Part shown: positions 1 through 18,645 of the stretch, in pieces
How positions within the stretch are numbered: the stretch's first letter is position 1
Layout: each line of letters starts with the position of its first letter
Assembly (NCBI GenBank): GCA_031459625.1
Contig: JAVKIH010000003.1
Coordinates: 152,769 to 171,413 of the forward strand
DNA from: Candidatus Geohabitans tengchongensis
GTDB lineage: Bacteria; Sysuimicrobiota; Sysuimicrobiia; Sysuimicrobiales; Humicultoraceae
Reading direction: 5' to 3'
Length of the DNA: 18,645 nucleotides
Position numbers and translations under genes: made by a program
The notes under the pieces: generated by a model
The model's database searches: none
The model's input: only the letters and a program-made list of their open reading frames with translations
Told to the model about the DNA's origin: nothing

Positions 1-85
1 CCTGGCCGGGCTCCCCCTGCCGCGCTGCTTCGGGTGCGTCCTGGCCCTGCTCTGCCACCCGCGGGCGCAGCCCGCTCCGGCGTGA
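1..85 (+). CDS. 3' end of an upstream gene, partial, product unknown (LAGLPLPRCFGCVLALLCHPRAQPAPA*)
   Basis: The frame starting at base 2 has G/C at nearly every third position and ends at TGA 83-85, which overlaps GTG 82-84 of the next gene (GTGA coupling). Confidence 0.5.
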   Translation, partial: LAGLPLPRCFGCVLALLCHPRAQPAPA

Positions 86-1377
86 GGGCCCCGCCCACCC
101 GCCGGTCTCCCTGGCCGCGCCGCAACATGCCGGAGCAGATCGCCGAGCGCCAGGCCGCCCTGCGCGCCCTGCCCCAGTGGGAGTCGCAGCACGAGTTCCT
201 CTTCGCCTTCCCCCACCCCCCCGAGGTGTACGCCAGCGCCATCGAGGCGCTCACCGCCGGGATGTTCCTGCCGGTGGCGGTGGTGGGACCGCTGCGCGTG
301 GAGCTGGGGCGCTACGCGGTCGACCCCGCGGACGGCCGGCTGGTGGAAGAGGGGCGCGAGGTCGACGAGGTCTTCGTCCCTATCGCCCACACCGAGGGGG
401 GGCTGTCCGCCTCGATGCTGCGCGGCATGACAGCGGTGCTGCAGGACGGGGGCGTGCGCACCTACGTGCTGCACGACCGGATGACGCGCGACTCCGCCTT
501 CGTCTTCCGCACCACCGGTGAGGCCGTCGCCTTCGCCCGGTGGGTCGCCGCCCACGCCGCGGCGATGCGGGACTGGCTGCACGACCCCCAGAACCCGCTC
601 TACCGGGAGCGGGTGGGCGGGGTCGCCCGCCTCAGCCGCCACGCCCGCCTGTGGGAGGTGGACACCCACGTGGTCGGCGCCACCTGCCACGTCCTCTACC
701 GGTACACCACCGGGGACGCCTGCGGGCCCAACATGATCACCCGCAACTCCCACGCCCTCAACCACGAGTTCATCATGCGCCGCTTCCCCGCCGAGACCGG
801 CATCACCCCGGTGCGGTTCTTCCTGGAGACCAACATGGGCGGGGACAAGAAGCCGAGCGCCCTGTACTACATCCAGGGCGGGCACGGCAAGACCGTCCTG
901 GCCGAGGCCACCGTGAGCGGGGAGACGCTGCGCCGCGTGCTCCGCACCACCGCCGAGGACCTCGTGGCGCTGGAGCACGCCGGCGTGCACGGCAGCCACG
1001 CCAGCGACATGCAGTCGGTGGCCTTCACGCCGGCCTCGGCCATCGCCGCCCTCTTCGCCACCACCGGGCAGGACCTGGGAATGGTGGGGACGAGCAGCAT
1101 GGCACACGAGGTCCTCGAACCGGCCGGCGACGGGGTCCACCTGGCCATCCGCCTGGCCGGGCTCGAGGTGGGGACGGTCGGCGGCGGTACCGTGCTGCCC
1201 CACGCCCGTGCCTACCTGTCGCTCCTGGGGTGCACGGGACCCGGCAGCGTCTACCGGCTGGCTCAGATCATCGCCGCGGCCACGCTCTGCCTGGAGCTCT
1301 CCGCCTCGGCGGCCATGGCCAGCGCCGGCAGCGAGAGTTTCGCCACCGCCCACCTGCGGCAGAGCGGGCGGGTGTGA
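82..1377 (+). CDS. Divergent class I HMG-CoA reductase-like protein
   Basis: Class I HMGR motifs in order: PIAHTEGGLSAS (PMATTEG..VAS), MTR, TGDACGPNM (GDAMGMNM), NMGGDKKPS (N.CTDKKP), GHGKTVLAE, TGQD, VGTVGGGT, ELS, C-terminal AH. Start placed at GTG 82 because of the GTGA overlap; ATG 127 is the alternative. Confidence 0.85.
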   Translation: MRAPPTRRSPWPRRNMPEQIAERQAALRALPQWESQHEFLFAFPHPPEVYASAIEALTAGMFLPVAVVGPLRVELGRYAVDPADGRLVEEGREVDEVFVPIAHTEGGLSASMLRGMTAVLQDGGVRTYVLHDRMTRDSAFVFRTTGEAVAFARWVAAHAAAMRDWLHDPQNPLYRERVGGVARLSRHARLWEVDTHVVGATCHVLYRYTTGDACGPNMITRNSHALNHEFIMRRFPAETGITPVRFFLETNMGGDKKPSALYYIQGGHGKTVLAEATVSGETLRRVLRTTAEDLVALEHAGVHGSHASDMQSVAFTPASAIAALFATTGQDLGMVGTSSMAHEVLEPAGDGVHLAIRLAGLEVGTVGGGTVLPHARAYLSLLGCTGPGSVYRLAQIIAAATLCLELSASAAMASAGSESFATAHLRQSGRV

Positions 1378-2267
1378 GGGCGTTCGCCATCGTCAACCCC
1401 GCCGCCGGCGGGGGGCGGGCGCGACGGGTGTGGCCGGCGGCGCGCCGCACGCTGGTGGCGGCCGGCTGGCAGGTGGACGAGGCCACGGCCGAGCACCGCG
1501 GCCACGAGGCCGACCTGGCCGCCGCCGCGCGTGACCGCTACGAGGTCGTGATCGCCGTCGGCGGCGACGGGACCGCCCACTGGGCGGTGAACGGCCTGCT
1601 GCGTCCACCGGCCCCGGGCGCCGGCGCTCCGACCCCGGCCCTCGCCGTCATCCCCGCCGGCACGGGGGCGGACTTCGCCGCGGCCATGGGCCTGCCGCGC
1701 CACCCGCTGGACGCGGCTGCCCGGCTGGCGGGCGGACGCGTCGGACGCGTCGACGTGGGCCGACTCAACGACCGCTACTTCCTGACCATCGGCACCGTGG
1801 GGTTCGGGGGCGAGGTGGCCCGGCAGGTGAACGCTTGGCCGCGCGGGGTGCCCGGCCCGCTGCTCTACGTGGCCGCCATCCTGAAGATGCTGGCGGTCTA
1901 CCGCCCCGTCGAGATGACGGTGACCCTCGACGGCACCGCCCGCCGCCGCCGCCTCTTCATGGTGGCCGTGGGGAACACCTCCCGCGCCGCCGGGGGCATG
2001 CGGCTGTGTCCCACCGCGCGGCCCGACGACGACCGCTTCGAGGTGGTGGTCTTCGGCGACCTCACCCGGCCGCAGGTGCTCGGCCTGCTGCCGCGCGCCT
2101 TCTCCGGCCGGCACGTGCTCCACCCGCTGGTGGAGGTCCGGGCGGCGCGCACGGTGACGGTGGAGAGCCCTACCCCCCTCTCGCTGCAGGCCGACGGCGA
2201 ACTCGTCGGACAGGTGCCGGCCACTTTTGCGCTGGTCCCCCGCGCCCTCGCCGTCCTGGTCCCCTGA
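1374..2267 (+). CDS. Diacylglycerol kinase family (DagK/YegS/BmrU-like) lipid kinase
   Basis: C-terminal 297 aa of ORF 540..2267: IVNPAAG, VGGDGT, IPAGTGADFA, DVG, GNT..AGG, LQADGE. GTG 1374 overlaps the HMGR-like stop (GTGA). Confidence 0.9.
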   Translation: MRAFAIVNPAAGGGRARRVWPAARRTLVAAGWQVDEATAEHRGHEADLAAAARDRYEVVIAVGGDGTAHWAVNGLLRPPAPGAGAPTPALAVIPAGTGADFAAAMGLPRHPLDAAARLAGGRVGRVDVGRLNDRYFLTIGTVGFGGEVARQVNAWPRGVPGPLLYVAAILKMLAVYRPVEMTVTLDGTARRRRLFMVAVGNTSRAAGGMRLCPTARPDDDRFEVVVFGDLTRPQVLGLLPRAFSGRHVLHPLVEVRAARTVTVESPTPLSLQADGELVGQVPATFALVPRALAVLVP

Positions 2268-2279
2268 AGCCCCGGCCGG

Positions 2280-2999
2280 TCAGTCGCGTCCCCCTGGCGC
2301 GGTGGGCGTCCCGGACGAGGTCGCGGCGGGCGCTGAGACGTCGGGCCGCGGGGGGGTGGCTGCCGCCTGCGCTGCGAGGGGCCGGACGGGCCGCTGCTCC
2401 TCCGGGAGGAGGGCGGCCACCGCGGCCTCGAAGCGCGCGGTCCACTCGCGCACCAGGGCGTGGCTCAGCCGTCCCTCCACGCGCGGCACCGCCAGGGGCG
2501 GACCCAGCCGGATCGACACCGGGGCCCGGCGGGGCCAGCGCGCCCCTTTGGGCATGATGCGGTGGCTGCCGCCGATGCCCAGCGGCAGGACCGGGACCCC
2601 CGCGCGCAGCGCCAGGTAGGCGGCGCCCTGCTGGAAGGGCTGGAGCCGGCCGTCCAGGCTCCGCGTCCCCTCGGCGAAGACGCCGATGGCCCAGCCCTGG
2701 GCCAGGCGGTCCAGCGCGGTGCGCAGCGCGGTGCGGTCGGCCTGGTCGCGCCGGACGAAGAAGCTGCCGAGCGAGCGGATCCACAGCCGCACGCCCCGCA
2801 GCCGCGCCAGCTCCTCCTTGGCCATGAAGGCCACCCTGGCCCGCAGCGCCAGGGCCACGAGCGGGATGTCGGCCGCGCTGGCGTGGTTGGCGATGACGAT
2901 GAACGGCGGTGGCGGCTCGTGGTGGCGCCCCTCCACCCGGTAGCGCACCTGCACCCGAAACCACAGCCGGAAGAGGAAACGGTTGAACCTAAACCACAC
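2280..2999 (-). CDS. plsC: 1-acyl-sn-glycerol-3-phosphate acyltransferase (lysophospholipid acyltransferase family)
   Basis: NHASAAD (HxxxxD), FMAKEEL, FVRR, FAEGTRS, VPVLP motifs; overlaps the 3' end of cmk as in the common cmk-plsC pair. Confidence 0.88.
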   Translation of the reverse strand: MWFRFNRFLFRLWFRVQVRYRVEGRHHEPPPPFIVIANHASAADIPLVALALRARVAFMAKEELARLRGVRLWIRSLGSFFVRRDQADRTALRTALDRLAQGWAIGVFAEGTRSLDGRLQPFQQGAAYLALRAGVPVLPLGIGGSHRIMPKGARWPRRAPVSIRLGPPLAVPRVEGRLSHALVREWTARFEAAVAALLPEEQRPVRPLAAQAAATPPRPDVSAPAATSSGTPTAPGGRD

Positions 3000-3696
3000 T
3001 CAACCGCTCCTGACAGAGGCGCAGCACCGCCTCCACGACCTCCCCGAGCTCCCGCTCGGTGGTGTCCATGACCACGGCGTCCGGGGCCGCCCGCAGTGGG
3101 GAGTGCGGGCGGCGCCGGTCCCGTTCGTCGCGCGCCTCCTCGGCGGCGCGGAGGTCCTCGTAGGCCACCTCGATGCCCTTGGCGCGCAGCTCCCGGTAGC
3201 GGCGGCGGGCGCGCTCCTCGGGCGAGGCGGTGAGGAAGATTTTCACCTCGGCGTCGGGGAAGACCACCGTCCCGATGTCCCGTCCCTCCACCACCACCCG
3301 CCCGTCGCCGGCCAGCCGTCGCTGCAGGGCCACCAGCGCCTGGCGCACCTCCGGGTGTGCACTCACGAGGGAGGCCGCCTCGCTCACCGCCGGGCTCTGC
3401 AGGGCCTCCGTGACATCTTCGCCCGCCAGCAGCACGCGCTGCCCGTGGGAGCCCTCGCGGAAGTCGATGGCCAGGGTGCGGGCGATGGCCGCCAGCGCAG
3501 GGGCGTCATCGGGGGCGATGCGGCGGCGCAGCGCCTCGTAGGCCACCGCCCGGTACATCGCGCCGGTGTTCACGTACCGGAACCCCAGCCGGGCCGCCAC
3601 GGCGCGGGCCACCGAGGTCTTGCCCACGCCGGCCGGACCGTCGATGGCCACGATCGGTCCTGTCCGCCGCTCTCCGGTGTCCCGATCTTCGGCCAT
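2989..3696 (-). CDS. cmk: Cytidylate kinase
   Basis: IAIDG-type P-loop VAIDGPAGVGKT, TGAMYRA, VVEGRDIGTVVFPDA, KIFLTAS, RDERD. Start moved to ATG 3696; the longer ORF overlaps csaA on the other strand. Confidence 0.95.
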   Translation of the reverse strand: MAEDRDTGERRTGPIVAIDGPAGVGKTSVARAVAARLGFRYVNTGAMYRAVAYEALRRRIAPDDAPALAAIARTLAIDFREGSHGQRVLLAGEDVTEALQSPAVSEAASLVSAHPEVRQALVALQRRLAGDGRVVVEGRDIGTVVFPDAEVKIFLTASPEERARRRYRELRAKGIEVAYEDLRAAEEARDERDRRRPHSPLRAAPDAVVMDTTERELGEVVEAVLRLCQERLSVV

Positions 3697-18153: not shown

Positions 18154-18645
18154 CCCATGTTTGACATTGACGGGGCTGAAACCCGCATGGTTGAGCCATT
18201 CCTGTTCAGGCAATTTCACTACAGGGCTCAGGGGGCGTGAGGCGGGGCAGCCCGACAGCCTTGAGGACCGCTTGAGCATGTGGGGTGGGCCTGGTGATCA
18301 CCCGGGTCTGGTGCCCGTCCAGCTCCAGGGTGACTAACCGCACTGGGCGGAGCGCCTCCAGGGCGGCGTCGAGCGAAAGCGTCAAGCCCGCCCGCCGCAG
18401 TGCCTTTTCCAGGGCGATGCCCAGCAGCAGCGCGAGATGGGCCACGAACAGGTGCCCCCGGACCCGCGACTCGGTCTGGTGGTAGATGGGGCGCACCGCC
18501 AGCACATCTTTGAGGCAGCGGAAGCCCCGCTCCACCGTCTGCAGGTCTTTGTGGGCCGCCACAGCCTCGCGGCTGTCCAAGGTGGCGTCGTTGGTCTGTA
18601 GGATGTACGTACCTTCCACCCGCAGCTCGACGCGCAGCTTCGCCC
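18154..18645 (-). mobile_element. IS1634-family insertion sequence, downstream end (partial)
   Basis: Transposase C-terminus plus a likely terminus CCCATGTTTGACA starting at 18154; visibly lower GC than the flanks. The end position is inferred, since the partner IR is outside the window. Confidence 0.7.
18206..18643 (-). CDS. IS1634-family DDE transposase, C-terminal part (5' truncated by window)
   Basis: EG.YILQTN...L...E....L..VERGFRCLK..L.VRPIYH....RVRGHLFVAHLALLL; frame open to the window edge. Confidence 0.87.
   Translation of the reverse strand, partial: AKLRVELRVEGTYILQTNDATLDSREAVAAHKDLQTVERGFRCLKDVLAVRPIYHQTESRVRGHLFVAHLALLLGIALEKALRRAGLTLSLDAALEALRPVRLVTLELDGHQTRVITRPTPHAQAVLKAVGLPRLTPPEPCSEIA

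Follow-up and report, generated by a model that had tools for sequence, protein, structure and literature searches.

The DNA stretch analysed here (the window) is 18,645 nt of Candidatus Geohabitans tengchongensis (contig JAVKIH010000003.1, positions 152,769 to 171,413 of the forward strand). It opens within a three-gene unit which encodes a ferritin-like di-iron protein, a reductase with the class I HMG-CoA reductase (HMGR) fold, and a lipid kinase. All three genes are on the + strand; the 3' end of the di-iron gene lies at 2..85, the reductase gene (431 aa; Pfam HMG-CoA_red, E 7e-75) at 82..1377 and the kinase gene (297 aa; Pfam DAGK_cat and YegS_C) at 1374..2267. An earlier, sequence-only reading of the window had joined the three by two GTGA stop/start overlaps, at 82-85 and 1374-1377, and both were confirmed. 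The TGA at 83-85 closes a reading frame running in from base 2 (LAGLPLPRCFGCVLALLCHPRAQPAPA), GTG 82 is the start of the reductase and GTG 1374 that of the kinase. GTG 82 was preferred to ATG 127 as the reductase start because W11, P12 and N15, which lie ahead of the ATG, are conserved, and because ACG replaces that ATG in a close strain (L001 place 12128). By themselves the overlaps are weak evidence, since the window holds 52 GTGA. The first is retained in close relatives; at the second junction these have a gap of 1-6 nt or a TGATG overlap. The kinase gene directly follows the reductase gene in 6/6 published relatives that carry the reductase (7/7 counting an unpublished genome, G008), an order far above chance expectation.

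The frame at the window edge comprises the final 27 codons of a gene for 316 aa, whose last base is window base 85 (whole gene at G000:C23:151676-152626, or L001:10908-11858). In the assembly a run of 100 N precedes the window, and the first 127 bases of the window exactly repeat the bases ahead of that gap (L001:11774-12000). Contigs from 4/4 public runs, drawn from two hot-spring studies and including two runs which are possibly the source of the assembly, skip these 227 bases, so that the di-iron gene continues into the window. The upstream gene is therefore whole; a genuine duplication ahead of the window was ruled out, and the scaffold gap is an assembly artefact. The GC content of the three genes (72-77%) is in line with that of the host (73%). 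In one RNA run a 22.8-kb contig of flat depth spans the stretch, which is no demonstration of expression.

A scan of GTDB gave 570 stretches with a relative, the best 80 of which are the loci considered below. Residue counts are for the window protein plus these 80 (n = 81), in human numbering by way of alignments with 6HR7 and the human enzyme. For human HMGR the catalytic residues and those of the HMG pocket (Ser684, Lys735 and Asn755) have been defined, and Asn755 lines the HMG site (PMC7503714). The catalytic equivalents E559, K691, D767 and H866 (E105, K256, D331 and H424 in the window protein) are present in 81/81, and the NADPH-site Ser626 is retained in all 92 aligned rows of the subfamily, some of them duplicates. 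The substrate pocket has changed throughout. Ser684 is Glu, Asn755 is Ser and Leu862 is Phe in 81/81, the residue which we take to be human His752 is Thr in 80/81, and the Lys735 position holds Ala in 58, Thr in 8, Val in 6, Leu in 5, Ile in 3 and Ser in 1, with no Lys in either adjoining column. Two Streptomyces enzymes from annotated mevalonate clusters retain Ser, Lys, His, Asn and Leu at these positions.

This pattern is that of FcrA, an HMGR-derived fatty acyl-CoA reductase (Grossi et al. 2025), for which the published account reports NADPH-dependent reduction of C14+ acyl-CoA to the alcohol and no reduction of HMG-CoA (PMC11948995). FcrA is marked there by changes at 684, 735 (printed as Lys795) and 862, with Lys735 swapped mostly for small residues. 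The window protein carries the signature as E249, A300 and F420, with further changes at T316 and S319. It resembles the FcrA enzymes of Ca. Promineifilum breve, which has been assayed, and Natronomonas pharaonis (PMC11948995) in its class I fold and catalytic Glu, Lys, Asp and His, in Glu at 684, a small or non-basic residue at 735 and a bulky one at 862, and in a host without the mevalonate pathway. It differs in lacking the N-terminal Lad domain (its sole Pfam match being HMG-CoA_red), in the exchanges at 752 and 755, in having a di-iron protein and a DAGK as partners, and in a host without a detected wax synthase. With the class I HMGRs (human 1DQ8, Methanothermococcus 6HR7, Streptomyces mevalonate clusters) it shares the fold, the cis-loop DKK, the catalytic residues and the NADPH-site Ser; it has lost the HMG-binding residues, and its score against TIGR00533 is 189.9 bits vs a cut-off of 441.8. 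On these residues the window protein is to be classed as an FcrA-signature enzyme, not an enzyme of the mevalonate pathway. Small trees, built without the sequences of PMC11948995, show the subfamily as a compact, long-branched clade (100/99). Its neighbours there are homologues which carry fused ACP and kinase domains (93/93), with the mevalonate enzyme set apart; the single, long-branch outgroup limits this result. FcrA is also characterised by an elongated alkyl pocket; the active-site loops are at low confidence in the monomer model.

Thirty of 150 listed profile hits were scanned for fusions. The reductase is fused to an APH/EcKL kinase domain in 12 of them, two of which consist of AMP-binding, ACP, reductase and kinase domains. 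To judge from their domains, such proteins would embody a reduce-then-phosphorylate logic within one chain, acting on a carrier-bound fatty acyl group.

Several further arrangements of FcrA-like proteins were observed. The fused proteins P0358, P0373, P0331, P0297 and P0320 and that of L110:5326-8202 comprise fusions of AMP-binding, ACP, reductase and EcKL/APH kinase domains as well as DUF3419-reductase-APH and thymidylate-kinase-like-reductase-APH fusions. At L110, on a Streptomyces plasmid, the gene follows a GH3 acyl-adenylating gene. A second FcrA-like type, in Chloroflexota (L101, L105, L103), adjoins a UbiA prenyltransferase gene and a PEP-dikinase-like gene; at L103 there is also a membrane protein without Pfam match which by eye is phytol/dolichol kinase-like. 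A second HMGR-fold frame, without the catalytic residues, occurs in G012 (L009:1459-2814, - strand).

The sequence-only reading had left the gene upstream of the reductase to be identified; its 316-aa product has the R2/R2lox/ADO fold. Sequence searches of Pfam and NCBIfam gave weak matches only (AurF, R2lox, ADO), and atlas searches returned only unnamed ferritin-like and HMGR clusters. The AlphaFold model (pLDDT 85) matches ribonucleotide reductase R2 with Z 23.8, R2lox with 23.4 and ADO with 22.5, and at lower scores AurF (16.3) and an acyl-ACP desaturase (14.7). A four-helix core with two ExxH motifs and two further carboxylates places the protein among the ferritin-like di-metal proteins. 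The predicted ligands, E69, E102xxH105, D152 and E182xxH185, are invariant in 54-56 of 56 sequences, the rest being cut sequences; W37 and D181 are also kept in this set, and an R2-type N-terminal helix is present.

None of the named families accommodates it. The position which we take to be that of the R2 radical tyrosine, four residues past the His of the first ExxH, holds Leu in 52 sequences, Ile in 3 and a gap in 1, and no Tyr, unlike in R2. R2lox proteins have a Mn/Fe cofactor and a bound fatty acid; in the test for them the score was 31.1 bits vs the NCBIfam cut-off of 194, and Val72 of the R2lox Tyr-Val cross-link is Ala72 in 55/56 homologues. GkR2loxI (4HR0; Z 23.4, rmsd 2.9, 248 aligned) shares the R2 fold, the E69/E102/H105 spacing and the lack of a radical Tyr; the window protein differs from it in being only 18% identical, in the Ala at position 72, in having Asp as the third carboxylate and in its fixed link to a reductase. 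For the N-oxygenase AurF, PF11583 gave 25.3 bits, under the gathering score of 29.6, with a fold score below those of R2lox and ADO. For ADO itself the fold matches, while no ADO Pfam match was obtained at E up to 0.1. From sequence and model together, the upstream protein appears to be of di-metal oxidase type, outside every named family. No fused forms were found among longer proteins, which is weak evidence.

The di-iron protein ends in a CFGCxxxxxC tail behind a disordered linker, encoded at window bases 2-85. This tail is present in 19/56 homologues and missing from those of Binatia; it is a possible extra metal site. A more distant ferritin-like protein occurs at L149-L153, beside what by eye are OsmC-like and rhodanese genes, in six relatives without the module.

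The host belongs with the CSP1-3 group, and the sample of relatives comprised 41 genomes. The reductase gene occurs in 7 of the 41 and the di-iron gene in the same 7 (6/40 without G008). The best 80 loci come from CSP1-3, Chloroflexota, Dormibacterota, Binatia, Bacillota and Gaiellales; as kin are not independent, they count as about six lineages rather than 80 events. A ferritin-like gene is found at 75/80 loci. At 55 it is of the same clade; at 20 it belongs to a second type, which is only some 28-32% alike across 100 residues and in which D and E are interchanged at three of the ligand positions. Two of the five loci without such a gene start less than 600 bases from a contig end. A DAGK gene is present at 49/80, in three arrangements (41 downstream, 7 upstream on the opposite strand and 1 upstream on the same strand). 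The constant partner of the reductase is thus the di-iron protein, and the kinase is less constant; the sequence-only reading, which had taken the kinase as the partner, is corrected on this point. Lipid genes recur as neighbours: CDP-alcohol phosphatidyltransferase at 17/80, PlsC type at 9/80, membrane desaturase at 6/80 and hot-dog thioesterase at 12/80. In class-wide samples the reductase subfamily was present in 21/151 genomes of Binatia and in 19/201 of the class which holds Gaiellales, and the di-iron gene was present in 39/40 genomes of one Binatia order.

At six loci of Chloroflexota and Dormibacterota (L018-L020, L022, L023 and L026) there are in addition a membrane fatty-acid desaturase (PF00487), a DUF4383 protein and an unnamed membrane protein. 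Seven records (L028, L030, L039, L045, L057, L058 and L062) are titled Enterobacteriaceae or Klebsiella pneumoniae yet have the Binatia type of gene order; those placed in trees group with Binatia, and the titles look wrong.

The kinase scores 164.8 bits against TIGR00147 (cut-off 118.65) and with both Pfam domains belongs to the YegS/Rv2252/BmrU kinases, with which it shares the NPxAG, GGDGT and DGE motifs; it differs in falling below the cut-off of each named equivalog and in the HW after GGDGT. The variants GGDGTAHW (aa 63) and GTGADFA (aa 96) are present as the sequence-only reading had reported, but they are not special to the module. GGDGTxHW is found in 7/7 module genomes and also in 3 of 23 relatives which have the kinase without the module (one of the 23, G018, being unpublished), loss of the Asn of GTGNDFA is common among kinases of genomes without the module, and the module kinases of other phyla bear other motifs. 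The variants were rejected as a marker of new specificity on these grounds. In a tree made without outside paralogues, the kinases which adjoin the pair in Binatia, Dormibacterota, Chloroflexota and CSP1-3 fall into four separate clades, an indication that the pairing came about on more than one occasion.

In the host genome (G000, 94% complete) the reductase gene is the only one of HMGR fold. Family searches found no HMG-CoA synthase there or in 5/5 other hosts, and the methylerythritol phosphate (MEP) pathway is represented by dxr, ispG, ispH and two ispE. The five GHMP kinases of the host are ThrB, GalK, two IspE and an HddA-like sugar kinase, all on other contigs and none near the family cut-off for mevalonate kinase. 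The earlier statement that the window holds no GHMP kinase or HMG-CoA synthase was borne out and extends upstream, where a canonical mevalonate cluster was looked for and none found. A tblastn search with five Streptomyces mevalonate genes gave no match in the host genome or in the 80 loci; its reach is limited, as the host's own GHMP kinases went unmatched, and the weight is therefore carried by the family searches. No wax synthase (WS/DGAT) was found in the host by a search which gave matches in 2/5 other hosts, and a wax ester role in this host is disfavoured.

The glycerolipid genes of the host comprise PlsX and two of PlsC type. PlsY was not found in the host genome, neither behind der nor elsewhere; in two relatives plsY follows ispH-der, and the host der is followed, mid-contig, by another gene (C23:135274-138956). 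No CDP-alcohol phosphatidyltransferase was found in the host genome. Searches at E up to 1e-20 failed to detect GpsA in 40/41 genomes, and its lack is therefore lineage-wide. As an observation apart, the glycerolipid gene set is unusual for the whole lineage. Three FAD-oxidase_C genes of the host are candidates for an AGPS-type ether synthase, one of which, judged by eye, neighbours a malate synthase gene and glycolate-oxidase-like genes.

Taken together, the gene identities, residues, folds, gene order and distribution suggest that the trio oxidises a long acyl chain, reduces its thioester to the primary alcohol and phosphorylates that alcohol as a precursor of a membrane lipid. We put the probability of this reading at roughly one half. 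In the first and weakest step the di-iron protein, with O2, would hydroxylate the chain near its head, desaturation being the alternative. Several points favour hydroxylation. R2lox is described as binding long-chain hydroxy fatty acids (PMC9314684), and alkane hydroxylation is reported for one member, GkR2loxI (PMC10867098). Genes of PlsC type and for CDP-alcohol transferases are recurrent neighbours, and in known diol lipids the first OH is described as bearing the head group and the second as acylated (PMC3504966). In the second step the reductase would convert the acyl-CoA or acyl-ACP, with 2 NADPH, to the 1-alcohol, or to a diol if the first step is a hydroxylation. Reduction of a long acyl thioester to the alcohol is the firmest step and, given the family signature, very probably correct. 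The kinase would then phosphorylate the primary OH; that it acts on the alcohol product is somewhat favoured by the gene context. Finally, and speculatively, the adjoining PlsC-type enzyme might acylate the second OH to give a glycerol-free analogue of phosphatidic acid. The reduce-then-phosphorylate module proposed by the sequence-only reading is thus supported for the reduction of a long-chain thioester, and phosphorylation of the product is probable, with a DAGK at 49 loci and sister reductases fused to kinases.

A number of observations weigh against this reading. Identity between the subfamily and a Lad-domain FcrA (L104) is only 31%, and at 752 and 755 the pocket shows two changes beyond the FcrA signature, so that the product and its chain length may differ from those of FcrA. 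The modelled fold of the di-iron protein does not reveal its reaction. High-scoring PlsY is missing also from many relatives without the module, and 21/21 Binatia genomes with the reductase retain PlsY; general replacement of PlsY by the module was rejected for Binatia on that count. No lipid data were found for any host. In Chloroflexota the subfamily was found in 5/401 genomes, all in one order of 21, an order of large genomes, in a scan which scored only four candidates per genome. The known diol makers Thermomicrobium (PMC2615216), Nitrolancea and Roseiflexus are Chloroflexota, and the biosynthesis of the Thermomicrobium diol lipids has been called unresolved (PMC2615216). The restriction to one order argues against the subfamily as the route of the known diol makers, although the membership of the three named genera in the sample was not established; the link to Thermomicrobium drawn in the sequence-only reading found no support here. 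No DAGK gene is present at 31/80 loci, including all those of Gaiellales and Bacillota. The same kinase, at 43-56% identity, is carried by 23/34 relatives without the reductase, and 17 of these 23 keep its flanks, ie a small divergent gene upstream or plsC-cmk downstream. The window kinase is therefore the resident gene of the lineage and may be an ordinary diacylglycerol (DAG) kinase. The reductase/di-iron pair lies between the divergent gene and this resident kinase, either by insertion or by loss elsewhere.

The facts about the kinase lend themselves to an alternative, in which the product of the pair is a neutral fatty alcohol in modified form, destined for ether lipids, esters or export, and the pair was inserted beside a DAG kinase of ordinary function. 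Relatives which lack the pair do have the kinase at this locus, with the small divergent gene directly abutting it, many of the loci have no DAGK, and FcrA has been proposed to supply ether lipids (PMC11948995). Against this, kinases of four clades adjoin the pair in three arrangements, a kinase domain of unrelated fold is fused to sister reductases and no wax synthase was found in the host, and we consider the alternative rather doubtful.

The near-constant core of reductase and di-iron genes also recalls the cyanobacterial AAR/ADO system, in which an acyl-thioester reductase stands beside a ferritin-like di-iron enzyme. An altered reductase would here release the aldehyde, which the di-iron protein would deformylate, leaving an alkane with one carbon less. 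ADO ranks with the best fold matches (rmsd 2.5, 204 aligned), and its 22% identity is the highest of the top rows; Asn755, which lines the HMG site, has changed in every member. The window reductase, however, is of a fold unrelated to AAR and belongs to an alcohol-making family, the assayed FcrA yielding alcohol (PMC11948995). The di-iron protein has no ADO Pfam match and has the extra R2-type N-terminal helix, with invariant W37 and D181, which is missing in ADO (the ADO alignment begins at residue 48), and the scheme leaves the lipid kinase without a role. This alkane route is unlikely.

A catabolic route, with the di-iron protein as an alkane hydroxylase and the reductase working in reverse from alcohol to acyl-CoA, could appeal to the reported alkane hydroxylation by GkR2loxI (PMC10867098) and to the reversibility described for HMGR chemistry (PMC7503714). 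It is very improbable in view of the biosynthetic lipid genes which adjoin the module, the retention of the NADPH-site Ser626 and the lack of a recurring beta-oxidation cluster among the neighbours. The suggestion of the sequence-only reading that the DAGK stands in for mevalonate kinase beside a true HMG-CoA reductase is close to refuted: the class I fold, the catalytic residues and a thiolase-like gene 9 kb off in the window (by eye) are set against the loss of S684, K735 and N755 in 81/81, the low TIGR00533 score, and the MEP genes in a host which, like the other five tested (6/6), gave no HMG-CoA synthase.

The oxidise, reduce and phosphorylate reading can be carried further, to an O2-dependent, glycerol-free route formed by the trio and PlsC, ie hydroxy-acyl thioester to alkane-diol to diol-1-phosphate to acyl-diol-phosphate, which would replace the lost PlsY step in the hot-spring host. 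This extension is tentative and, on balance, doubtful. Its candidate for the acylating step is the PlsC-type gene at 2280..2999 (- strand), which is convergent with the kinase gene and stands in the ancestral cmk-plsC context.

The remaining genes of the locus are of housekeeping or undefined character. The cytidylate kinase gene lies at 2989..3696 (- strand; start approximate). On the other side of the module is the small divergent gene (L001:10394-10768, - strand), whose product of about 110-125 aa has no Pfam or NCBIfam match and which adjoins the kinase locus in relatives both with and without the module. Between 3838 and 17645 the genes were assigned by eye, as CsaA-like, ArsR regulator, citrate-lyase-beta-like, DacB, ScpAB, site-2 protease, LysA, thiolase, SLC13 transporter, GroEL and CRP regulator. 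A transposase fragment, also by eye, ends the window (18206-18645).

No paper on a module of HMGR or FcrA with a di-iron protein or kinase was found in a literature search whose coverage of subscription papers was thin, and the supplementary trees of the FcrA paper may include the subfamily. In its main text PMC11948995 makes no mention of a kinase, ferritin or diol. The module is real, conserved and an undescribed variant built on FcrA; the reductase type itself has been known since 2025, when it was described for wax esters by authors who state that many hosts must use FcrA otherwise (PMC11948995). For such non-wax use the module supplies concrete partners. It spans at least six lineages from soils, sediments and hot springs, all of them uncultured or little studied, and in one Binatia order nearly every genome has it. 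For an R2-fold di-iron enzyme outside the named families it also provides a likely physiological setting. In annotations, genes of the subfamily bear the name HMG-CoA reductase and would be mistaken for markers of the mevalonate pathway. As a set of three genes for soluble proteins, the module is a directly testable candidate for the synthesis of non-glycerol or alkyl polar lipids. If the glycerol-free diol route were true, diol-backbone membrane lipids would have their first gene set, and the R2-fold di-iron enzymes a new reaction.

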